DNA of 64,000 nucleotides, taken from the IMG/VR virus record IMGVR_UViG_3300017605_001304, positions 32,001 through 96,000 of that record; one strand, 5' to 3'. Source of the stretch: a virus. Below, in pieces: positions 48,133 through 59,178 of this stretch; within the stretch, counting starts at the first letter, position 1, and every line of letters starts with the position of its first letter. Below the pieces are notes generated by a model. It was not told the origin of the DNA. It ran no database searches and worked only from the letters and a program-made list of their open reading frames with translations. A program made the position numbers and the translations under genes.

Positions 48133-49773
48133 TTACGCCGTCGCCGACAGGGCTTCCGAGAAGGAAGCGCCCGAGCTGAGCAGCGCGAAGTCGACACGGA
48201 TGATCTCGGCGGCCTTGGTCGGCTTGAGGAGGATCAGGCCACGCATCGTGTTCTGATCCTTGAGAGCAGCAGTGTTGGTCGACTCGTCGCAAATGACCTG
48301 GAAAGCATCGAGACCACGCCGGGCCTTCATCGTGTCGAAGATCGGCTGGACGATGCCCACGAAACGACGCCACGTGATCGGATCGTCCGGCTCGAACACC
48401 AGGAACCGGATCGACGCGGCCACGGTCTTCTTGGCCACGTTCATCAGCCGGCGCACGTTCACGCGATCCAGCGCCGACGACGTCCGCTGCATCGTCTTGT
48501 TGCCCCAGAGGGTGATGCCGTCGCGGGGGAACTTGACGATCGGGTTGATGACCTCGCCGGCCGCGTAGAGCAGCTCGCGCTCGCCCTGGTCCGGGCCGGT
48601 CGCGGGGCGGTACTCGATGGCCGTCGCCGTCTTGAGGACGCCGCGCTGCAGGCCCGCGAAGGCGAACCACGGCTCGGCGACTCGGTCCGTGAGGGCGATC
48701 TGGCTCGACACCCAGCCGCACGGCGGGGTCAGAACGTACTGGCCGTTGTAGTTGTCGTAGTACCCGACCCACGGCCAGAAGCAGGTTGCGTAGCTCGAAT
48801 TGACCGAGGTCGAGGAATCGCTGGTGCCGTTCACCAGATCGCGCACGGCGGTCGCCGAGCTCTGGTTGTACGGCGGGTCGTAGAGGTAGAGGCACTCGGC
48901 GCGAGCCTCACAGAGCGCGATGCCGGCGAGGTGCACCGTCTTGCCGCTGAGCGAGTTGGCCGCGACGGTGGCGCCCGGGCAGGCGATCATGTTGACGTCG
49001 ACGGTGTCCGCATCCGCGAAGAGCTGGAGGCCCGTCTTCGCTGCACCGCTCTGGGTGCCGATGAAGTCGCTGGCCTGGAGGCTCGTCTCGCCGTTCGTGC
49101 CGCCCGTGGCGTTATACGTCGTGAACGTCGGCTGGTTGGTCGAGTGACCGCCCGGCGCCGTCATCTTGACGTACTGCGAGTTGCCGTTGATCCGCGTCGT
49201 GTAGAAGTTGGGATCACTGTCCGCGCCGAACGTGAGGTTGTCGTAGTCCTCGACGTCGACGTTGTTGAACGTGATCGTCAGGCGGAAGCGCGTGCTCGCG
49301 AACTGCGCATCCCGCGGAGTGCTGATCGTGATCAGGAGGCCCGACGTCGCCGTCGTGCTGGCCGCGTTTGCCCAGACGCCCGGGCTCGACGCGTCGGCGA
49401 TCGCGACGTTGTTGTTATTGCTGTCCTTGATCAGGATACGAGCCGTCTGAGCCGGCCCGGCTGCCGCTTCGATGCGTGCCACCCAGAGCTGATTGCCGTT
49501 GCGCAGGTACTGGATCGCAGCATGCGCAAGGAAGCTGCCCGGGTAGTAGTACGTATCGCTCGTGCCTTCACCAGGGAAGTTGGCGAAGGTCGAACCGGCG
49601 ACCGGAGGCCCGAACGTATCGATGAACTGAGCTTCGGACGTGATATAGGTCAGCTTGTTCACCGGGCCGCGGCTGCACCAGCCGACGAGCCCGAGGATCG
49701 AGGAGCTGACCCGAGCGGCGTACTGACTGAGATCGAGCTCATTCAGGTACACGCCCGGAGAAACGAACGCCAT
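48133..49773 (-). CDS. Tail sheath protein (gp18-like)
   Basis: MAFVSPGVYLNELDLS, RGPVNK, WFAFAGLQRG, INPIV, WGNKT, LDRVNVRRL, FLVFEP, KPTKAAEII. Confidence 0.95.
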   Translation of the reverse strand: MAFVSPGVYLNELDLSQYAARVSSSILGLVGWCSRGPVNKLTYITSEAQFIDTFGPPVAGSTFANFPGEGTSDTYYYPGSFLAHAAIQYLRNGNQLWVARIEAAAGPAQTARILIKDSNNNNVAIADASSPGVWANAASTTATSGLLITISTPRDAQFASTRFRLTITFNNVDVEDYDNLTFGADSDPNFYTTRINGNSQYVKMTAPGGHSTNQPTFTTYNATGGTNGETSLQASDFIGTQSGAAKTGLQLFADADTVDVNMIACPGATVAANSLSGKTVHLAGIALCEARAECLYLYDPPYNQSSATAVRDLVNGTSDSSTSVNSSYATCFWPWVGYYDNYNGQYVLTPPCGWVSSQIALTDRVAEPWFAFAGLQRGVLKTATAIEYRPATGPDQGERELLYAAGEVINPIVKFPRDGITLWGNKTMQRTSSALDRVNVRRLMNVAKKTVAASIRFLVFEPDDPITWRRFVGIVQPIFDTMKARRGLDAFQVICDESTNTAALKDQNTMRGLILLKPTKAAEIIRVDFALLSSGASFSEALSATA

Positions 49774-49911
49774 GAAAGTCCTCCTGACAGTGATCAATCA
49801 CCCGCGAAGCGGGGGAGACGGTCACGTCGCTTGACCTTGGAAGGGGCGACGGAGGAAAGACGGGAAGACCGGACGGGAGCAGCGTAGGCAGGGGTTCCTG
49901 CAGCGGCTGCT

Positions 49912-50995: not shown

Positions 50996-51691
50996 TCACT
51001 CAAGTTCGACCCGGCGGAATTGCCAGCTCGCCACGCGCGACGGAACGATGACGCCACGAGGCGCAGACAGCCTCGACAGGTCGAGCTGGTCCGCCCACCA
51101 GACGCCGTCGAGTGAGGTGGCGTCCTCCACGTACACGGTCGTCAAGCAGTCAAATACGATGGTCGGATGAGCGGCTCCAAGCACGCGCTGCTGGAGTTTC
51201 TTCGTGGCGAGGACAGCACGCCGGGGGTCTTCAATCTTGGTGACCCGGCTAAACTTCTCGTCGGCATGTGCATCTGCGCGGGCCTCGTCTTCTGAGGCAT
51301 AGTCCGCACACAGCTCATCGTCCCATTCATCGTCATACCAACAGATTCGCCAGACCGAGCCGCGGACGATGTAGCCATGTTCAAGCCCCCACCCGACAAT
51401 CTCTTCACGCAGCCCGGGCACGATGTTGTGAAAATTGAGAAAGCGATTCCCCGCCCGCGTACACTCCCACACGGGGACAGCGCCCAAGGTCGCGATGTCG
51501 ATCCATTCCCGTGGATGCTGTGAAACCGAGAGTCCCGCGCCCTCCAGGCTTCCAGCCCGCTTGTCTTTCGCGTCGAGCGTTCCCGCGTGCCAGAGCTTCC
51601 GGAATGACTTCGTCGGGAGGTTGCGCTGCACTTCCAGGAATAGGCCACTAGCGATCGTGCGAGCTGACGGCCGCATGGACGCCTCACTCAA
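50996..51691 (-). CDS. Possible divergent ADP-ribosyltransferase-fold protein with N-terminal tag
   Basis: RTIASGLFLE tag, then LWHAGT...EGAGLSVS...DGVWW...GVIVP. Confidence 0.5.
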   Translation of the reverse strand: MSEASMRPSARTIASGLFLEVQRNLPTKSFRKLWHAGTLDAKDKRAGSLEGAGLSVSQHPREWIDIATLGAVPVWECTRAGNRFLNFHNIVPGLREEIVGWGLEHGYIVRGSVWRICWYDDEWDDELCADYASEDEARADAHADEKFSRVTKIEDPRRAVLATKKLQQRVLGAAHPTIVFDCLTTVYVEDATSLDGVWWADQLDLSRLSAPRGVIVPSRVASWQFRRVELE

Positions 51692-52847
51692 GGGTGGCGC
51701 GCATCTCCTGGAAGACCTCCACGAGCGCGGCGAGATTCGGATCGAGCTGCTCGGTCTTGTTGGCCGTGAGCGCGACGAGGGCCGGGCTCATGCGCAACAC
51801 CCACTCGCGGATCGCGTCCTCGGCCTTCACGTTCGGGCAGTGACACTTGGACGGGTCACTGCACTTGCCGCACTTGCGCTTCTTCGTGCGGTGGTTCGAA
51901 GCCGGGACCTGCCCGAGGGGAGGAGTGACGCCGGCCCCGACGTTGAGCGTGCCGGTCAGCTCGTTCAGGTAGTTGGTCGGCGACTGCCCGATGCCTTGCA
52001 TCAGGGCAGAGACGATGTCTTTCGAATTCATTGGCACAGACTCCCCGAAGATCTGCCGGCGGTACTGCGCCGCATTGTTTATCACCCAGTGTACAACGTG
52101 CTCGAATGAGCCCCGGTAGAGGCAGTCCCGGCCACCGGGAATCTTGGAGAGGACGCACCACACATCCCAGCCGTCGGATTGAAGCACCGCGATCGAGCTC
52201 GGAGGGATCTTGTTACCGAGGAAGATGTACTGGTTCTCGTTATCCCCGTAGTGATAAATCGGCACCGAGGCCGCCTGGAACAGTACGGCGTGCTTACCGT
52301 AGCTATCGTAAGCGCGCTCGGCCGCGCGTGCATCGAGCGCATTCACGGCGAAGTTGTAACCGCCATACCGCTTGGCCTCGTCCGATAGCCAGCTCGTGAG
52401 TCCTAGTCGCTGGTAGTCGTGGTACCCGCGGGTGAAGCCGTCCGCGCCGATTTCTTGCGGGGAGTCCGTGAAGTGGGCCAGCCACGTCTGACGGTGCGTG
52501 ATCGAGCCGCGGAGATCTGCGTGCGCGTAGGTGGGAAGATCTGCGTGATTCTCGACCGCGCTGTCTAGAAAGGCGTCCCACTCTTCTCGATGGTCGATGA
52601 ACCAGTCGTTGAGGCGTGCGACGACGGCCCAGTCTGCGTCAGAGTCCGGAACGTCGGAGGCCCACGTAGCCTTGATCTGCTTCGGCTTGATCCCAGCCGC
52701 GAGAGCGATCTCCTTGCTCTTTGGCCAGTGAGTGAACTCGTACCAATACTGAGCCACGTCCGGGGGCCGCAGGTCCATGTACGAGTGGAGCGCGCTCAGC
52801 TCGCTGCCGTAGACCTCGTCTTTCCGCTTGAGGTCCTTCGAGTTCAT
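51684..52847 (-). CDS. Multidomain protein with ART-like domain and Cys-rich C-terminal module
   Basis: WLAHFTD...GYNFA...YGKHAVLF...GDNENQYIF; MNSKD occurs at the start and again internally; CGKC..CHC. Confidence 0.55.
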   Translation of the reverse strand: MNSKDLKRKDEVYGSELSALHSYMDLRPPDVAQYWYEFTHWPKSKEIALAAGIKPKQIKATWASDVPDSDADWAVVARLNDWFIDHREEWDAFLDSAVENHADLPTYAHADLRGSITHRQTWLAHFTDSPQEIGADGFTRGYHDYQRLGLTSWLSDEAKRYGGYNFAVNALDARAAERAYDSYGKHAVLFQAASVPIYHYGDNENQYIFLGNKIPPSSIAVLQSDGWDVWCVLSKIPGGRDCLYRGSFEHVVHWVINNAAQYRRQIFGESVPMNSKDIVSALMQGIGQSPTNYLNELTGTLNVGAGVTPPLGQVPASNHRTKKRKCGKCSDPSKCHCPNVKAEDAIREWVLRMSPALVALTANKTEQLDPNLAALVEVFQEMRATLE

Positions 52848-54229
52848 GAGGCATGCTCTCCCGGATCCCCGTAGGGCAGGACCGACGCGAACCCGAACCC
52901 GAGCGGGCCGATCAAGAACATGGATCCGTCTTCCATGGCTTGCCACTTCATGCGGGGGATGATCTTGGCGAACTCTGGATCTTTGCGGGCCAAGCGCTCT
53001 AGACGGCGGAGTGCTTCCGCCTGAGCCTCTTCTCGCGTTCCACGCACCGCGACCTCGGCGAAGCCGGCCGGCTGCGGCACCTTCCCAAGCGGGGACGGAA
53101 GAAGACCATTCGGGAACTTCACACGCCAATACTCCCGGCCCGGCAGCTCGGTCGGCATGTTGGGCTTGAAGATCGGCTCTCCGACGGTCTTGTCGTCGAC
53201 CCAGCCGTCGGGGGTCCAACCGTCTTTGAAGAGCCGCGTCGCCATGGAGCGCGTGGATTCCTTCTTGTGCTTCTTCACGTCGTCTCCTCGCACGCGCGGT
53301 GTGTCGAAGGGGAAGCCCGGCGCGTCGACGTCCCTTGGGGTGAGCTGCGTGACCTTGGCGATCTTCTCCGTGTTGAAGACGACCACCCAGTCCTCGTTGC
53401 TCTGCCTCACGTACGCCACGTCGACGCCGTGGTCGACCAGGAACTTCGCGAGCGCCGGACCGGCCTGTCCAGACGCCTGATCCGAGTTCACGAAGACGTT
53501 GACGAGGTACTCGGCAGGGAACGGGTTCCCGGAGCGGGCCGCCAGCCGGCGCAGCGAGTCTGCGAGCTCCTGGCGCTGCCGAAGACGTGGGACGTCGCGC
53601 AGCCACGCGAGCGTCTCTTCGAGATCGAGGCGAGCGTCCTGCAGCCAGCGCAGGTCCGGAGCCAGGACGACCCGCTGCACGGCACCGCCGCCCTTCGCGT
53701 AGCCCTTGGCGGTCGTCCAGCTCGTGGTGAGGTAGATGCCGGGTCCGTGCTCCGCGGCGCCGCGTCGTGCACCACGGATCTCGGGCGGGCCGAACCACCG
53801 ATGCGAGCCGTGATACAGAACGAGCGGGTCCGTCATGGACGACTCTCGCTGACGCTGGATAGGTATTACCTCGTAATAGCGAGGAGAAGAAATGTCACTC
53901 TGCTCGCGGACATACGAGATAGCGATCTCGTCGACACGTGGGAACGTAAGGAGCACATAGTCTAGTACGCGCGTACGAAGTCGCGGGGCAGACATGAAGC
54001 GATTCGAACAAGCCTGCCGAATCCAGCCGCGCTTGAACATGCTCAGCCAAAGCTGGTCTTCCGCCGCCTCAGTGTTGTTCGTGAACTCCACCTGAGATGG
54101 AATCTGCACGCCGGTGGCGCGCAGTACGCCTTCGTGTGCATGGACCCAGTCATTGTGCGAAGTGTCCGGGTCGGTAATTGGGAACACGCAGCCATCCGGG
54201 GCGATCCAGGCGCGTCCAGCGTAGGCCAC
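52844..54229 (-). CDS. GWxxPDG domain + H-Y-type ADP-ribosyltransferase domain + tagged C-terminal domain
   Basis: AWIAPDG...H..W...GWIRQ; LYHGS...GPGIYLTT...AKGYA...EDWVVVFN; ESTRSMATRLFKD; GTG start with SD AAGGAG. Confidence 0.7.
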   Translation of the reverse strand: MAYAGRAWIAPDGCVFPITDPDTSHNDWVHAHEGVLRATGVQIPSQVEFTNNTEAAEDQLWLSMFKRGWIRQACSNRFMSAPRLRTRVLDYVLLTFPRVDEIAISYVREQSDISSPRYYEVIPIQRQRESSMTDPLVLYHGSHRWFGPPEIRGARRGAAEHGPGIYLTTSWTTAKGYAKGGGAVQRVVLAPDLRWLQDARLDLEETLAWLRDVPRLRQRQELADSLRRLAARSGNPFPAEYLVNVFVNSDQASGQAGPALAKFLVDHGVDVAYVRQSNEDWVVVFNTEKIAKVTQLTPRDVDAPGFPFDTPRVRGDDVKKHKKESTRSMATRLFKDGWTPDGWVDDKTVGEPIFKPNMPTELPGREYWRVKFPNGLLPSPLGKVPQPAGFAEVAVRGTREEAQAEALRRLERLARKDPEFAKIIPRMKWQAMEDGSMFLIGPLGFGFASVLPYGDPGEHAS

Positions 54230-54239
54230 AGGCAGCTCC

Positions 54240-54776
54240 TTAACCGAGCGTGCAGTCGATCGGCTGGAAGTCGGCGTAGATCTCGCGCGCCTTGTCCAGC
54301 GACCACCCATAATTACTCAGGTAGTTCACGAACGCGCCGAGGTCCAGGAACTTGAAGCCCGTCACGGAGTGGCAGAGGTTCTGGTAGAGGACGTTCAGTC
54401 GCACGACCTGCAGGTAGGCGCGCGCCACGACGCGGCCGAACTCGTTGGGCCGCAGCGGGCTCACGATGATGCGCGGGCCGTAGACCTTGGTCCAGTCGAT
54501 CTCTTCGGGCGGCAGGAGCGCCTGCGGGCCCCAGAGGGCGAGGGCCAAGCACTGGCTCGCGCGGTTGAACTTCTCGACGGCGTCCTTGTCGGGCTTGCCC
54601 TGCGCCTTCGGGCGGGTGTCCGGGAGGTCGACGCCGACGAGCTGGATGCGGGCCGCGCGGTACGTCCACAGGCCCTGGTCGATCATCCCGAAGAACGTCT
54701 TGCCGTCGACGACGAACTGCCGGCTCTTCGGGAAGAGCTGGACCTGACAGGCATAGTTGAACAGGATCCGATTCAA
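54240..54776 (-). CDS. Thermonuclease (SNase)-like protein, catalytically degenerate
   Basis: VVDGKTF..IDQG..RIQLVGVDLPD...EFGRVVA versus canonical DGDT / IDxPE / YGR. Confidence 0.6.
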   Translation of the reverse strand: MNRILFNYACQVQLFPKSRQFVVDGKTFFGMIDQGLWTYRAARIQLVGVDLPDTRPKAQGKPDKDAVEKFNRASQCLALALWGPQALLPPEEIDWTKVYGPRIIVSPLRPNEFGRVVARAYLQVVRLNVLYQNLCHSVTGFKFLDLGAFVNYLSNYGWSLDKAREIYADFQPIDCTLG

Positions 54777-54801
54777 GAAGACCTCCCGTGACGTCGACGC
54801 C

Positions 54802-55311
54802 TCACTGACGAAGCGCTGCGGTCACGTGCTTGTTGACGATTTCGGTCGCGTACTTCTCGTACTGCCGAGCGCGGCGCGCGATGAGCGTCGCTGCGACTCG
54901 CCAGTGAGGATGCGGGGGAAGCCGGACGCTCTGCCCGCCGATGACCGCCGCCCCGCCGTACTCCAGGAGCTTGCTCACGTAGGGCAGGGACCAACCGAGC
55001 GCGCTCATGCGGTCCTCGGTGGCGATCGTGACGGTGGTGATCTCCTTCCCGCGGTGGACATCGGGCAGGATGCCGCGCACGTAGTCGAAGATCGCCTCGC
55101 GCCACGCCTTGTCCGAGAGGTAGTCGGTCTCTTCCAGGCTGCGGTCCGCGGCGCGGGCGGCCTTGGACTGGATGGTCACGAGGCTGTCGCGTGTGACCTT
55201 GTCCGCGAGCTGCTGGAGCGACTCCTCACAGCCTTTCCGGAGACCTGCCTCGACCCTGCGCAGCCACTCCTCGGGCCGTAGCCCTTCCATATTGACGGTG
55301 GCCTTGATCAA
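54802..55311 (-). CDS. Virion morphogenesis / tail-completion protein (HK97 gp10-like)
   Basis: LLEYGG...LPPHPHWR motif; start at TTG 55311 or ATG 55290. Confidence 0.55.
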   Translation of the reverse strand: MIKATVNMEGLRPEEWLRRVEAGLRKGCEESLQQLADKVTRDSLVTIQSKAARAADRSLEETDYLSDKAWREAIFDYVRGILPDVHRGKEITTVTIATEDRMSALGWSLPYVSKLLEYGGAAVIGGQSVRLPPHPHWRVAATLIARRARQYEKYATEIVNKHVTAALRQ

Positions 55312-55343
55312 GGTATCGTCTCCACACCTTGGAGGAGGTGAAC

Positions 55344-55766
55344 ATGGCCACGCTGGACGAGCTGCAGAAGGGGTCCGAAGAGTGCTCGGCACGGATGCGA
55401 GCGGTGCTACAGGACGAGCTCAAGCGCACGGGCTTTCCACTGCGCCTATGCACCTACTACGTGGTCGGCATGACCGGCGCGTGGATCTTCCGGCTGCTCT
55501 TCAAGTTCGACCTGTTTGAGAACTTCAAGAGCTTGGCGCTCATCCTGCTGTGTCCGCCTCTGCTGACCGCGACGCAGGCTTTCCTGTTGAGCTTCATGCT
55601 CAAGCGGGCATACCAGCGGGCGCAGGATGCGCTCGGCATCGCGGACAAGGCGGAGAAGGCGCTGTTCGAGGCGACGCGAGGACTGCTCGCTCAGCGTGAG
55701 CAGCTCAAGTTCCTGGTCGAGAGGCTGCGCGATCGCGACGAAGGCGAGGAGTGGAAGGACGCTTAA
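55344..55766 (+). CDS. Membrane protein (two TM segments + coiled coil), antisense insert
   Basis: SD GGAGGTG; two hydrophobic segments. Confidence 0.65.
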   Translation: MATLDELQKGSEECSARMRAVLQDELKRTGFPLRLCTYYVVGMTGAWIFRLLFKFDLFENFKSLALILLCPPLLTATQAFLLSFMLKRAYQRAQDALGIADKAEKALFEATRGLLAQREQLKFLVERLRDRDEGEEWKDA

Positions 55767-56257
55767 CGGCCGTGGCGGTACCGGTCGCAGGCGCACACGA
55801 TGTGGAACGGGAAGTTGGACGATCCCCAGTATCCGTCCTTGCTGCGCGTCTGCGTCTTGATCTCATAGAGGTCCGAATCGAAGCGCACGATCGAGCCGAC
55901 CAGGAACGTCGTGCTCGGCTGCAGGATCTTCTGGTCGAGCAGCAGCACGGTCGAGAACGTCACGAGCAGCGTCCGCTCCTCATCCATGCCGTACTTCTGC
56001 AGGCGGTACTTGCTCGGGCTGTGGTCGATGTGGGCGTGGACCATGATCGGGTGGTCCCAATCCGGGTCGGACGCCTCGTTGTAGAGCGAGTCGACGTTCG
56101 TGTTGCCCCGGTTGAGCAGGATCAACGCGATCTGCGGGTGGTGGCGGATGAACGCCTCGCGCTGGAAGTTCGCCTGGATCTTGTAGTCCGACGTCTCCAG
56201 CAGCTTGAGCAGGAGCTCATTCGCGTCCTTGCCGTCGATCGGCAGCAGGTCGGACAT
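55763..56257 (-). CDS. Neck / head-completion protein (gp14-like)
   Basis: VDSLYNEA, LQKYGMD, VGSIVRFDSDLYEI...YWG. Confidence 0.7.
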   Translation of the reverse strand: MSDLLPIDGKDANELLLKLLETSDYKIQANFQREAFIRHHPQIALILLNRGNTNVDSLYNEASDPDWDHPIMVHAHIDHSPSKYRLQKYGMDEERTLLVTFSTVLLLDQKILQPSTTFLVGSIVRFDSDLYEIKTQTRSKDGYWGSSNFPFHIVCACDRYRHGR

Positions 56258-56966
56258 GGAGGTCCTCCAAGAACAGACGAGCGGCGAGGAAGCGGGTGGC
56301 CTCGTTCACGTGCAATTCGTACGGCCGCTCGGGACGCCCCTCATCGCTGTACGGGTCGACGTAGAACGACGACTTGCCGGGGTAGTTCGTGATGAAGTAG
56401 TCCTTCGCGCGGGACAGATCCTTGCGGCGAAGCTCGTACATGTTCCAGTCCGCCTTGCGGATCCAGCCGTGCATGCACATGTGGCGCATGATGACGTCGC
56501 CCGGGGTCAGTGGCGGCGTCTGATAGGCAGCTAAGAGTTCAGGGTGAACTCGGGCCCACGAGTCGTGAGACTGCCGGTCAGAGTCGAGCGGGTAGAACGT
56601 GTCGTCGGGAGCAATCCAACCTGCCCGAACATTGCGCGACTCGTGCAGGCGCACGGTCACCGGTTCCACTCGATGTGGAACGCGGCCGTGAAGGTCGAGA
56701 TTTGCTGCCTCGACTCCTGGATACTTCATGCGGATGTAATCGAGCAAGAGAGGCTCATACTTCACGTTCAACTCGTAGTCCTTCTTGCCAGCCTGCCGGA
56801 TCCAGCCCTTCGCGTACAACTGCGTAATGACCGCATCCGTGAAGTCAGGATCGTACGGGTCGTCCATGCCGAGCAGCTCGGCCGCGAACTGATCGTGCAT
56901 GTCGAAACGCGGCTCCAGAGGATGGAAGTTCATGTCCGGGTCGAGCCAGCCAATGTGGTCGGACAT
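56217..56966 (-). CDS. Protein with two GWxxPD domains and C-terminal tag
   Basis: GWLDPD...H...GWIRQ...YE and GWIAPD...H...GWIRK...YE; EATRFLAARLFLE. Confidence 0.75.
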   Translation of the reverse strand: MSDHIGWLDPDMNFHPLEPRFDMHDQFAAELLGMDDPYDPDFTDAVITQLYAKGWIRQAGKKDYELNVKYEPLLLDYIRMKYPGVEAANLDLHGRVPHRVEPVTVRLHESRNVRAGWIAPDDTFYPLDSDRQSHDSWARVHPELLAAYQTPPLTPGDVIMRHMCMHGWIRKADWNMYELRRKDLSRAKDYFITNYPGKSSFYVDPYSDEGRPERPYELHVNEATRFLAARLFLEDLHVRPAADRRQGRE

Positions 56967-57787
56967 CACTGGCCCTCCAGGAACAGACGCTTCGCGATAG
57001 CCTTGGTGGACTCTAGCTGCACGACCACTGACTTGATGCGGCCGCGCCAATCTCTGAGATCAATCTCGATCGCGCGTACTTGAGGATACTTACGCCGGAC
57101 ATAGTCCACGACGGACTGTTCAAACAAAGCGTAGCACTCGTACTGGTCGCGACTCACTTGACGGATCCAGCCGTCGTCAAACATCGCTTGAATCTTCCTG
57201 TCGACCCAGTCATCGTCGTCCGAGTCGTGCGCCTCACTGTCGGCAACCCACCCGGCGTGTCCTTGCGGAGCGGCGTGAAACTGTCCGTTCGGGTCGATCC
57301 ACCCTTGCACCAGCGATGGCGCGGCTTCAAGCCAGCTCGACGGGAGCTTGAGCTGCTGGACGGCGCCAGATCGAATCGACGACGTCAACACGATCCACTC
57401 CTGCTCTTCGAGCGAGTCCTCGCTGGAGAGGTAGCGGCTGATCGGCAGCCCGATCGCTGTGCCTTTACGAAGGCGATACAGCTTGCCGGACTTCCAGTGC
57501 TTTTGCGCGAACGTCACCGCCGTAGTGACGTTGCTGCTCCAGGACTGGAACACGCGAGTCGACTCAGACGCGGGATCTACCTCTGCACCACGGTAGAGCG
57601 CAGGAACTGGTTGGCCGTTCTCTTTCAGGTCCTGCAGCAGTGCCCGGGCCTCGGCCCGCAGCTTCCGGCCAGACGCACTCGAAGGTTCTGGGGCCCCGGC
57701 GAGCTCGTCCTTGGCGTGCAGCTCGACGGTACCCATGTCGCTGCTGACCCACCGCCAGACGGCCCGTACCGCTTGAGGGTCGATCAT
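56966..57787 (-). CDS. R-S-E-class ADP-ribosyltransferase domain fused to GWxxPDG domain and C-terminal tag
   Basis: LYRG, FQSWSS, A..FA, EEQEWIV; then GWIDPNG...GWIRQ; ESTKAIAKRLFLEG. Confidence 0.8.
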   Translation of the reverse strand: MIDPQAVRAVWRWVSSDMGTVELHAKDELAGAPEPSSASGRKLRAEARALLQDLKENGQPVPALYRGAEVDPASESTRVFQSWSSNVTTAVTFAQKHWKSGKLYRLRKGTAIGLPISRYLSSEDSLEEQEWIVLTSSIRSGAVQQLKLPSSWLEAAPSLVQGWIDPNGQFHAAPQGHAGWVADSEAHDSDDDDWVDRKIQAMFDDGWIRQVSRDQYECYALFEQSVVDYVRRKYPQVRAIEIDLRDWRGRIKSVVVQLESTKAIAKRLFLEGQ

Positions 57788-58146
57788 CCCAACCCCTCCA
57801 AGAACAGACGCTTGGCGATGGCCCGTGTAGACTCGTCCATGTTGATGACGAGTGTTTTCGGAGGGCCAAGAAAGTCAACTACATCGATATTAATTCGATG
57901 CACATTGGGGTGTACTCGACGTACGTAATCAATGACCCACTGCTCATACGCCGCGGTACACTCATAATCGTACAGTCCCGCTTGGCGCACCCACCCAGCC
58001 TTTAGCATCCGAACCGTCTCAGCGTTAACCCAAACCAGAATCTGATCGTTGTCCGGGGCTCCTGGCCTGTTGTCTATCACCCACTCGTCGTGGCCATTCA
58101 GTACGCGGTGGAACTCGCCGTCAGGATCAATCCAGCCCTGTGCCAC
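57784..58146 (-). CDS. Single GWxxPDG domain protein with C-terminal tag
   Basis: GWIDPDGEFH...H..W...GWVRQ...YEC...DYVRR; ESTRAIAKRLFLEG. Confidence 0.75.
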   Translation of the reverse strand: MAQGWIDPDGEFHRVLNGHDEWVIDNRPGAPDNDQILVWVNAETVRMLKAGWVRQAGLYDYECTAAYEQWVIDYVRRVHPNVHRINIDVVDFLGPPKTLVINMDESTRAIAKRLFLEGLG

Positions 58147-58149
58147 GGC

Positions 58150-59178
58150 TTACCCCCACACAGGCGGAACGGCCGGCGCGAGCGAGCGCAGGTCATCTTC
58201 CAGCCGCTGCCGGTCTTGCCGGCTCTCGTCTAGAAGCTGCGCTGCGTCGAGCGTCAGCGTTCCACCGGGGCTCGGGACCGTCCCGCTCCACTTGCCGCGG
58301 GTCCGGCCGAGGATCTCCTTCGCGACGGCAAGTGCGTATTGTCGGAACCACGCGTGGTGCGAGACCGGGATCTGGTCGATCGCGACGTCGGCGTAGTAGC
58401 GGTACGAGACGTCGTAGAGGCTCGGGTCCTGAGAACCCGAGGGCCCGCCGAGCGAGATGTAGAGCGTCCCGTTCTCAACTCGCCAAGTCCACTCGGGCTC
58501 GACCGACGCCTGCCTACGCACTGTTTCCCAGTGCGACTGCGAGAGCACGAACTCGTCGAACTGGATCTGCGGCCAGATCGGGAACTCGCGGCCGAAGAAC
58601 GGGAACGACGTCAGGTTCAACTGCTGCTTGCGAACGAACTGCACGTCCGCAACGCCGCGTGAGCCGACGCCCGGCAGCGGGTAGGCGAAGATGCCGGCGC
58701 TCAGCACCACGGTGTCCGACAGCTCGCGGGCGCACCAGCGGTTGTACACCGTGAGCGCTTCGTTCATGCACGTCGCGAGCTGCCCGCTCGTGAGCTCGAC
58801 GGCCACGGACGGGAAGCCCAGCATGTTGAAGACGTACTGCCGGATCGAGTCGGAGTTGACGCCGCTCGCGATCGGGTATTCAGCCGTCAGCACGGTCGGG
58901 AACGGATCAACCTGGATGCCGAGCTGGTTCGCGTACCACTTCGCCGTGATCCGGCCCTGCACATAATTGCTGGCGTCGATGTACGTGTAGTAGAACGTCC
59001 CCTGCGCGTCCGAGCCTTGCACGATCGAGACCGAGGAGTCGGTCCCGAGTGCCCGGGTCTCAGTCACCGTCACGGCGCCCGCCTGGAAGATCTGGACCGA
59101 GAGGTCCTGATCGACCACGTCGCCGAGCCCGGTGTCGTCATTGACGAAGCGGATGTCCAACAGAACTGGAAGCGCCAT
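58150..59178 (-). CDS. Neck protein (T4 gp13-like)
   Basis: YVFNMLGFPSVAVELT..QL, WFRQYALAVAKEILGRTRGKW..VPSPGGTLTLDA. Confidence 0.85.
   Translation of the reverse strand: MALPVLLDIRFVNDDTGLGDVVDQDLSVQIFQAGAVTVTETRALGTDSSVSIVQGSDAQGTFYYTYIDASNYVQGRITAKWYANQLGIQVDPFPTVLTAEYPIASGVNSDSIRQYVFNMLGFPSVAVELTSGQLATCMNEALTVYNRWCARELSDTVVLSAGIFAYPLPGVGSRGVADVQFVRKQQLNLTSFPFFGREFPIWPQIQFDEFVLSQSHWETVRRQASVEPEWTWRVENGTLYISLGGPSGSQDPSLYDVSYRYYADVAIDQIPVSHHAWFRQYALAVAKEILGRTRGKWSGTVPSPGGTLTLDAAQLLDESRQDRQRLEDDLRSLAPAVPPVWG

Follow-up and report, generated by a model that had tools for sequence, protein, structure and literature searches.

Why should seven late proteins of one phage have the same 13 residues in common, placed either at the end of a protein or at a junction between modules? 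The question is raised by a cassette of minus-strand genes in a 64,000-nucleotide stretch of DNA (the window hereafter), which corresponds to bases 32001-96000 of the 149,155-bp IMG/VR virus record IMGVR_UViG_3300017605_001304 (estimated to be 70% complete). The record is that of a high-GC (ca 65%) myovirus with T4-type parts, and according to Pfam and PHROG matches the window encodes the tail sheath, tube, baseplate hub and head-tail adaptor. The cassette reaches from the adaptor gene (58150-59178) to the genes leading to the sheath (48133-49797), and its members will be called A to F (see Table 1 for all coordinates). A preliminary description of the window had listed five copies of the shared peptide, here called the tag, and had proposed that it is a portable label for packaging into the phage head.

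The tag and its copies

The consensus of the tag is E-S-x-R-x-[I/L/M]-A-x-R-L-F-x-[E/G]. Reverse-complement translation of the five coordinate pairs in the preliminary description gives exactly the five peptides claimed there, and the expressions RLF[LK][ED] and GLFLE, searched in six frames of the window, match five times, at exactly these copies. The translations also agree with the placement given for them, at the C-termini of proteins A, B and C, internally in protein E and at the N-terminus of protein F. While the five copies of the window stand, the list was short of two others outside it. A profile of the five, run against all stop-to-stop frames of the genome, returns them together with two new copies (E 0.0017 and 0.023), the next match having an E-value of 0.076. 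The new copies are found in p553 and p589, two adjacent paralogues encoded upstream of the head gene block (genome 109756-113183; L003:13756-17183).

In total, 5/7 tags are C-terminal, one is internal (E) and one N-terminal (F). The endings are FLE followed by G (twice), by D and by V, and FKD, FQG and FRG. All seven sit on genes of late structural operons, either between the adaptor and the sheath or upstream of the head genes. Regarding the extent of the tag and SIGNIFICANCE, the pattern [EP][SA].[RK].[ILM]A.[RG]LF, which was written after seeing the seven copies, is found 7 times, compared to 0.003 times on average and at most once in 300 residue shuffles. For the six-residue core of the tag there are 8 matches, compared to 0.94 in shuffles; the eighth one lies in a baseplate-hub-like gene and is probably due to chance.

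The cargo consists of two different ADP-ribosyltransferase (ART)-like modules, two paralogues with a Cys cluster, and further modules without family match, so portability of the tag, which had been put forward from its occurrence at either terminus and internally in different proteins, is well founded. Several cassette proteins also have a domain of ca 100 residues, GWIxPDG...H..W...GWIRQ...DY...YP (the GWIxPDG domain below), five copies of which are found in four proteins (53825-58146). The E-S-like strings at which module boundaries had been said to fall are present in the translations, namely LHES in C between its domain copies, QRES in E from the domain to the ART-like module, WLEA in B, and FGES in an open reading frame (ORF) of 387 residues.

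It is important to establish whether the conservation concerns the peptide or the underlying bases. Over 15 codons, the copies of A and B share 13 of 15 residues and have 6 synonymous and 2 non-synonymous codon differences, and the base identity between copies in general is 22-34 of 45. The tag codons do overlap with the Shine-Dalgarno sequence of the following gene at the A-to-B, B-to-C and C-to-D junctions, as pointed out in the preliminary description, and all five C-terminal copies have a GGAGG-like string and a start codon within 0-7 codons downstream. In p553, however, the Shine-Dalgarno string is placed after the tag and not within it, and the copies in E and F have no start codon downstream. 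Because of the synonymous differences, the external Shine-Dalgarno string of p553 and these two copies, we conclude that selection acts on the peptide, in agreement with what had been claimed, and that the Shine-Dalgarno overlap simply results from the close spacing of the genes.

A possible address for the prohead

We now turn our attention to what such a peptide could do. The reading that we favor, at a confidence that comes near to even without reaching it, is that the tag is a loading signal that marks proteins for the virus particle. In this scheme, the tag would be a self-contained portable module on the ends and junctions of late accessory proteins (two ART-like proteins and several unassigned modules, to which metagenomic relatives add a GNAT acetyltransferase). 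By binding to some part of the prohead during its assembly, it would bring the tagged proteins into the particle, which would then deliver them along with the DNA, as is thought for the T4 capsid-targeting sequence (CTS) and the propeptides of T4 Alt. The flanking glutamates (E before S in front, L-E before G behind) may in addition let the S77 prohead protease trim the tag and separate fused modules. We infer prohead binding, packaging, cleavage and injection from the parallel with T4. The reading is plausible by analogy only, because an S77 protease and a gp23-type capsid protein are present and because relatives have a second peptide in the same positions.

As to the first of these points, the phage encodes, outside the window, a gp23-type major capsid protein (MCP; PF07068, E 1.4e-67) and a T4-type portal, and it has a Peptidase_S77 prohead protease (PF03420, E 3.3e-16; PHROG head maturation protease, E 2.3e-38). 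The first 80 residues of the MCP, which precede the part alignable to T4 gp23 (from residue 96), contain three L-x-E strings; this suggests a T4-like specificity. The protease constitutes the first third of a 567-residue protein (genome 101133-102836, minus strand; L003:5133-6836), the remainder being a long extension that is probably helical and has a zinc-ribbon-like Cys cluster at its end. The protein looks like a protease-scaffold fusion.

The second point comes from foreign proteins with the GWIxPDG domain. A profile of the domain has 173 matches at E<=1e-3 among 1.84 billion representative proteins. A second recurrent peptide, with the consensus RADQLIREALSEGA, follows ES in many inter-domain linkers of these family members. 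The dipeptide ES itself is held by 22 of 45 foreign inter-domain linkers, where it occurs 29 times compared to 13.8 +/- 3.3 in within-linker shuffles (0 of 1000 reach 29), and the notion of E-S-like boundary linkers thus agrees with the wider family. With a threshold of 0.1 on the independent E-value (iE), 45 instances of the RADQLIREALSEGA peptide were collected from 151 proteins, the locus L006 and the record G001. At columns 10-12, 24 of the 45 have L/I-x-E, mostly followed by G, A or S, and 7 more have L-E. The peptide is also found at C-termini (for example in P0095 and P0120) and at N-termini (P0007, P0073, P0143 and others), and it is present in L006 (in 8 ORFs within 20 kb) and in ca 30 of the 151 proteins.

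G001 is a 208-kb IMG/VR phage (93% complete) that is a distant relative of the present one, the MCPs being 44.6% identical and about a dozen other core proteins 27-38%. Its protease lies in a 592-residue frame followed by gp23, and this frame has the same layout as the 567-residue protein here. A second short match to the Gp23 C-terminus, with 65% identity to the MCP of the present phage over 52 residues, was seen far from the main capsid gene of G001 (49373-49519). Scanning G001 with a profile that was partly trained on G001 itself gives 19 candidates for the RADQLIREALSEGA peptide in three late-gene regions, 10 of them at iE<=0.1, and many late ORFs carry it in regions such as 143822-152000, 169733-179815 and 195903-203700 (loci L021-L031). 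Eight of the 19 stand directly or one residue after an ATG or GTG (4 of these at iE<=0.4 and 3 above 1), and several of the start codons in question have an AAGGAG-type string upstream. Judged from these sequences, the peptide looks like an N-terminal propeptide of capsid-targeting type in a sister lineage, ending in the T4 cleavage rule. It is absent from the present genome (best E 9.6), in which only 1 of 19 queries with the peptide carriers of G001 found a match, via a shared domain only. The tag does occupy the same kinds of place as the L-x-E peptide of the relatives, namely after E-S at the end of a domain, at N-termini and at C-termini, and a shared ending, hydrophobic-L-E-G/S, can be read by eye. 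Literature searches found no description of either peptide, and the string RLFLE only in unrelated papers.

Comparison with known systems

The general idea of a cargo address is already known from the T4 CTS, and by analogy the tag would be a variant of it that is not tied to the N-terminus. The consulted sections of PMC9026906 and PMC5694885 describe the CTS as N-terminal, with a length of 10-20 residues and a cleavage rule of L/I-X-E. Likened by description only, the tag resembles the CTS of IPI-III and Alt, which is removed by the S77 protease gp21, in that a short peptide is found on unrelated, non-essential, late proteins, among them an ART, in that the protease family and the gp23-type capsid are the same, and in that glutamates flank the peptide.

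C-terminal propeptides also exist in a T4-type system, as is seen from the packaged ART Alt, which loses residues at either terminus: the sections of PMC5694885 on Alt place the cuts at ITE-6 and LTE-619, by which 63 C-terminal residues are removed, and those of PMC9026906 likewise report the loss of both the N- and the C-terminal propeptide. The C-terminal sequence of T4 Alt agrees with the reported cut. In Alt there is thus a C-terminal piece on a packaged ART of a T4-type phage, removed in the head, whose role (targeting, tethering or control) is left open in these sections. Unlike the 13-residue tag, it has 63 residues, and it is not known to be shared among proteins. The last 25 residues of Alt begin with E-S-S, like two of the tags, which we treat as a chance similarity.

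Two other systems should be mentioned. The polyvalent proteins of Iyer et al. 2017 (PMC5512222) likewise combine several effector modules in a row, ART-PolyVal and GNAT being among them; their genes lie with those of late virion proteins, and packaging of the polyvalent proteins is predicted. In the consulted sections of that paper, however, MuF-type and other domains are the packaging determinants and no short shared peptide is described; here, moreover, the modules are mostly split into separate small genes. The N-terminal propeptides of SPN3US gp53/gp54 and of phiKZ are similar in that the two paralogues, with 34% identity, keep an identical 15-residue end with a protease motif. These propeptides are cut at A/S-x-E, and the authors who describe them read the shared end as a targeting and processing signal. 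They are N-terminal, long and backed by proteomics, whereas the tag is known here from sequence alone.

Arguments for and against the loading reading

Of the proposal of a portable head-packaging label, the portability, the selection on the peptide, the late operons and the S77/gp23 machinery stand. It is further in its favor that the N-terminal module of protein B resembles packaged ART families according to an Atlas model (see below). Other parts did not hold. An enrichment of the motif in scaffold, capsid and internal proteins had been predicted, but there is no copy in the MCP, the protease-scaffold fusion or the portal, and the strict tag strings occur nowhere else in the genome beyond the copies, other head proteins included. 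Cleavage after (L/I)-x-E had been assumed, but four copies end in F-L-E, with Phe at position P3, and 3/7 have no Glu, the new copies ending in LFQG and LFRG.

Several further observations weigh against the loading reading in the same way. The P3 residues before the leading Glu of the tag are M, Q, V, K, Q and V. While the T4 CTS is N-terminal, 5/7 tags are C-terminal, and the same fraction lies just upstream of a start codon (the copies in E and F lie elsewhere). N-terminal L/I-x-E strings are not enriched in this genome, being found in 13/194 ORFs compared to ca 15 expected from a rough estimate; this is about what composition predicts, and there is thus no sign of a second, N-terminal tag. 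Finally, hhalign aligns only 4 columns of the tag and the RADQLIREALSEGA peptide, the leading ES. Since homology of the two peptides is not established by this alignment, the argument from the relatives is one of analogy.

A wider version of the loading reading can be formulated, which we put forward as tentative and rather doubtful. A clade of high-GC T4-type phages would use interchangeable, lineage-specific address peptides (E-S-x-R-x-I-A-x-R-L-F-L-E here, R-A-D-x-L-I-x-x-x-L-x-E in the relatives) that function at the N- or C-terminus of a protein as well as between modules. Their carriers would be loaded into the prohead, where the S77 protease would cut at the flanking glutamates and dissect polyvalent proteins into single injected effectors.

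Alternative explanations

The main alternative is that the tag is a docking or linker helix among the cassette proteins, binding for example the GWIxPDG domain in trans in the style of dockerin and cohesin, or else a spacer between modules, with no role in capsid loading. Both the tag and the peptide of the sister lineage are indeed found at module junctions of multi-domain proteins, the genome has 5 domain copies and 7 tags, and the two domain copies without a tag (the first one of C and that of E) could accept a tag in trans. We nevertheless consider this explanation unlikely, although it deserves to be taken seriously. Many carriers of the sister peptide in G001 are located in clusters without a domain-bearing protein, tags at the extreme termini of single-module proteins are not spacers, and the interaction partner would, from the sequences at hand, be purely hypothetical.

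Another possibility is that the tag is merely the helix that closes the GWIxPDG domain and was passed on when the domain was duplicated; tags that stand alone would then be what is left of broken domains, with no function of their own. In three of the seven cases the tag comes immediately after the last strand of the domain, and the two domain copies that lack a tag still end with its leading E-S (LHES and QRES). The tags found in foreign proteins mostly follow the domain too. However, 4/7 tags have no detectable domain alongside: the domain profile finds nothing in the genome past the five copies (next E 0.29), and when the C-terminal 200 residues of p553 and p589 are aligned to the domain by hhalign, only the 18 tag columns align (E 2.1e-4). 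Among 144 scorable foreign proteins with 300 domain instances, the tag is present in only 5 (iE 6e-6 to 0.01), and it is found in 3/33 of those with a C-terminal domain. Furthermore, between A and B the tag is better conserved (12/13 residues) than the domain (50%), unlike what is expected of dead remnants. The explanation is hence quite improbable, and the sequence comparisons indicate that the tag is an add-on and not part of the domain fold.

The domain itself is a widespread tandem repeat in metagenomic proteins; individual proteins have as many as 10 matched stretches, the longest protein has 5251 residues, and the family has no Pfam or PDB match. In the metagenomic proteins P0006 and P0152, the domain is followed by DEVRAIAKRAKLDIG, the start and first helix of DUF5661, which has a six-residue run as in the tag. 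A link to DUF5661 (PF18905) was considered and dropped, this family being absent from the present genome.

We have also considered that the conservation is at the nucleotide level, either because the tag codons serve the following gene (as its Shine-Dalgarno sequence or in translational coupling) or because they are a recombination joint at which cassettes are shuffled. The GGAGG-like strings and start codons that follow all five C-terminal copies would fit the former, and the low GC content at third codon positions (GC3) of every tagged gene would fit acquired or shuffled modules. The GC3 values of the seven genes are 0.61-0.79 (ranks 0-18 of 116 genes of at least 100 residues, median 0.86), while the untagged cassette members have 0.95 (gene D, 55763-56257) and 0.94 (a 178-residue ORF, 54240-54776). 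Given the paralogy among A, B, C and E and that between p553 and p589, the result counts as about three independent observations; it is compatible with cargo genes coming from a pool that is acquired or exchanged. A Shine-Dalgarno sequence, on the other hand, requires ca 6 bases and not 13 codons, and in P0010 and P0025 the foreign copies are fused in frame. Together with these points, the codon comparison discussed above has already largely refuted a nucleotide-level origin, to which we attach very little probability.

Finally, it is scarcely credible that the tag, as an amphipathic helix, brings injected effectors to the membrane of the host: it is short, probably helical, mostly at the extreme C-terminus and has basic and hydrophobic residues, in likeness to bacterial membrane-targeting tails, but its mean hydrophobic moment of 0.41 is reached by 34% of residue shuffles, its net charge, at 0 to +2, is low, the acidic sister peptide has a mean charge of -0.64, and the strict conservation of E, S, R and A suggests that the partner is a specific protein.

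The tagged genes and their surroundings

The features discussed are collected in Table 1.

Table 1. Tag copies, cassette genes and other features; positions refer to the window unless marked as genome positions.
Feature	Position	Strand	Remarks
Tag copy 1, ESTRAIAKRLFLE	57796..57834	-	C-terminus of protein A, 3 residues before the stop
Tag copy 2, ESTKAIAKRLFLE	56975..57013	-	C-terminus of protein B; 12/13 residues as in copy 1
Tag copy 3, EATRFLAARLFLE	56265..56303	-	near the C-terminus of protein C; next 15 residues overlap the start of gene D
Tag copy 4, ESTRSMATRLFKD	53222..53260	-	internal in protein E, between ART-like module and C-terminal module of ca 130 aa
Tag copy 5, SARTIASGLFLE	51632..51667	-	N-terminus of protein F; residues 4-15 if the start is ATG 51676
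Tag copy in p589	genome 111420-111464	-	C-terminus, outside the window
Tag copy in p553	genome 109777-109821	-	C-terminus, outside the window
Head-tail adaptor gene	58150..59178	-	upstream flank of the cassette; PHROG 211, E 2.2e-13
Gene A, 120 aa	57784..58146	-	one GWIxPDG domain and tag (translation, domain profile)
Gene B, 273 aa	56966..57787	-	N-terminal ART-like module, GWIxPDG domain, tag
Gene C, 249 aa	56217..56966	-	two GWIxPDG domains, the first ending LHES without tag, the second with tag
Gene D, 164 aa	55763..56257	-	untagged; its Shine-Dalgarno sequence lies within the LE-D codons of tag copy 3
Gene E, 488 aa	52844..54310	-	GWIxPDG domain (ending QRES, without tag), ART-PolyVal-like module, tag, C-terminal module
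387-aa ORF	51684..52847	-	untagged cassette member; begins with MNSKD, which recurs after FGES
Gene F, 231 aa from TTG	50996..51691	-	probable start ATG 51676; tag, then module without family match
Tail sheath gene	48133..49797	-	downstream flank of the cassette region; PHROG 23, E 2.4e-78; Pfam Phage_sheath_1
p589, 589 aa	genome 111414-113183	-	tag at C-terminus
p553, 553 aa	genome 109756-111417	-	tag at C-terminus
Foreign tag, P0041			N-terminal; gene call starts two residues before the tag and may be cut
Foreign tags, P0040 and P0118			C-terminal
Foreign tags, P0010 and P0025			between domain and GNAT acetyltransferase (Pfam E 3e-6 and 1.3e-7)

Proteins B and E have 2-3 modules each. For residues 1-153 of B, the Atlas model resembles ADPrib_exo_Tox clusters with template-modelling (TM) scores of 0.68-0.72 and a Tevenvirinae_ADPRT cluster with 0.62, and also ARTs fused to portal or MuF proteins. 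In Pfam, B has no match at E<=0.1, and candidate catalytic motifs of an R-S-E ADP-ribosyltransferase were read by eye only. Protein E matches ART-PolyVal (PF18760) with E 4.7e-4 and 21.4 bits, which is under the cut-off of 31.2 bits, over residues 162-221 only. Family searches gave no match for protein F, whose probable start codon is preceded by GAGG. The Atlas model of protein A is of low confidence and gave no usable match, and NCBIfam gave no credible match for 8 cassette and head-proximal proteins.

The paralogues p553 and p589 are 40% identical over their last 200 residues. They have a Cys cluster with a weak FYVE-like match and an invariant stretch, DAPVK.GKQPLLY, ahead of the tag, and both begin with ca 14 residues ending in L-x-E-G. 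No family was found for them in Pfam, PHROGs, NCBIfam or PDB, and PDB sequence searches with the GWIxPDG domain profile and with p589 gave nothing below E 0.17.

Two peculiarities of the cassette can be noted. In the 387-residue ORF, the second occurrence of the starting residues, PMNSKD past FGES, gives the impression of a fusion between two genes that started alike. Within the minus-strand cassette there is also a plus-strand ORF of 145 residues (55329-55766, GC3 0.86), which overlaps the 5' part of a minus-strand ORF of 196 residues (54802-55392); either of the two could be the real one.

Searches for related loci gave little. There was no match to the cassette by megablast or to protein A by tblastn among 50,697 phage records, and word-index protein searches with A and with p589 returned the records of the queries only. 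A word-index search with a profile query among proteins of 696-2000 residues gave one multi-repeat protein, without the full tag. Related-locus searches of viral contigs with the adaptor protein and with a profile alignment gave no confirmed relative, and a further profile alignment gave 2 metagenome loci and 4 viral loci, none of them with a tag. A back-translated strict tag pattern had 0 matches in viral contigs, which says little, since the same pattern would miss all five foreign tags. As to sequencing runs, no RNA run is listed, and one DNA run has 6% of the words of the genome, which is no evidence of a habitat.

Implications

Were the tag merely a docking or linker helix, the result would add a minor detail to the annotation of a phage domain family that is widespread and has no name. 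With a loading function, it would single out those accessory proteins of an uncultivated phage that travel in the particle and reach the host together with the DNA, among them the ARTs, the acetyltransferase of the relatives and several unassigned modules. It is a concrete peptide for testing the loading of proteins into T4-type capsids.

Should the wider scheme of interchangeable addresses be true, the repertoire of injected effectors of such phages could be readable from sequence alone, and the tag could be used to load foreign proteins. A loading function of the tag would make the splitting of polyvalent effector proteins into working pieces easier to explain. It would also mean that the T4-style addressing of cargo is not tied to the N-terminus, and that lineages have exchanged the address while keeping the logic of the cargo.

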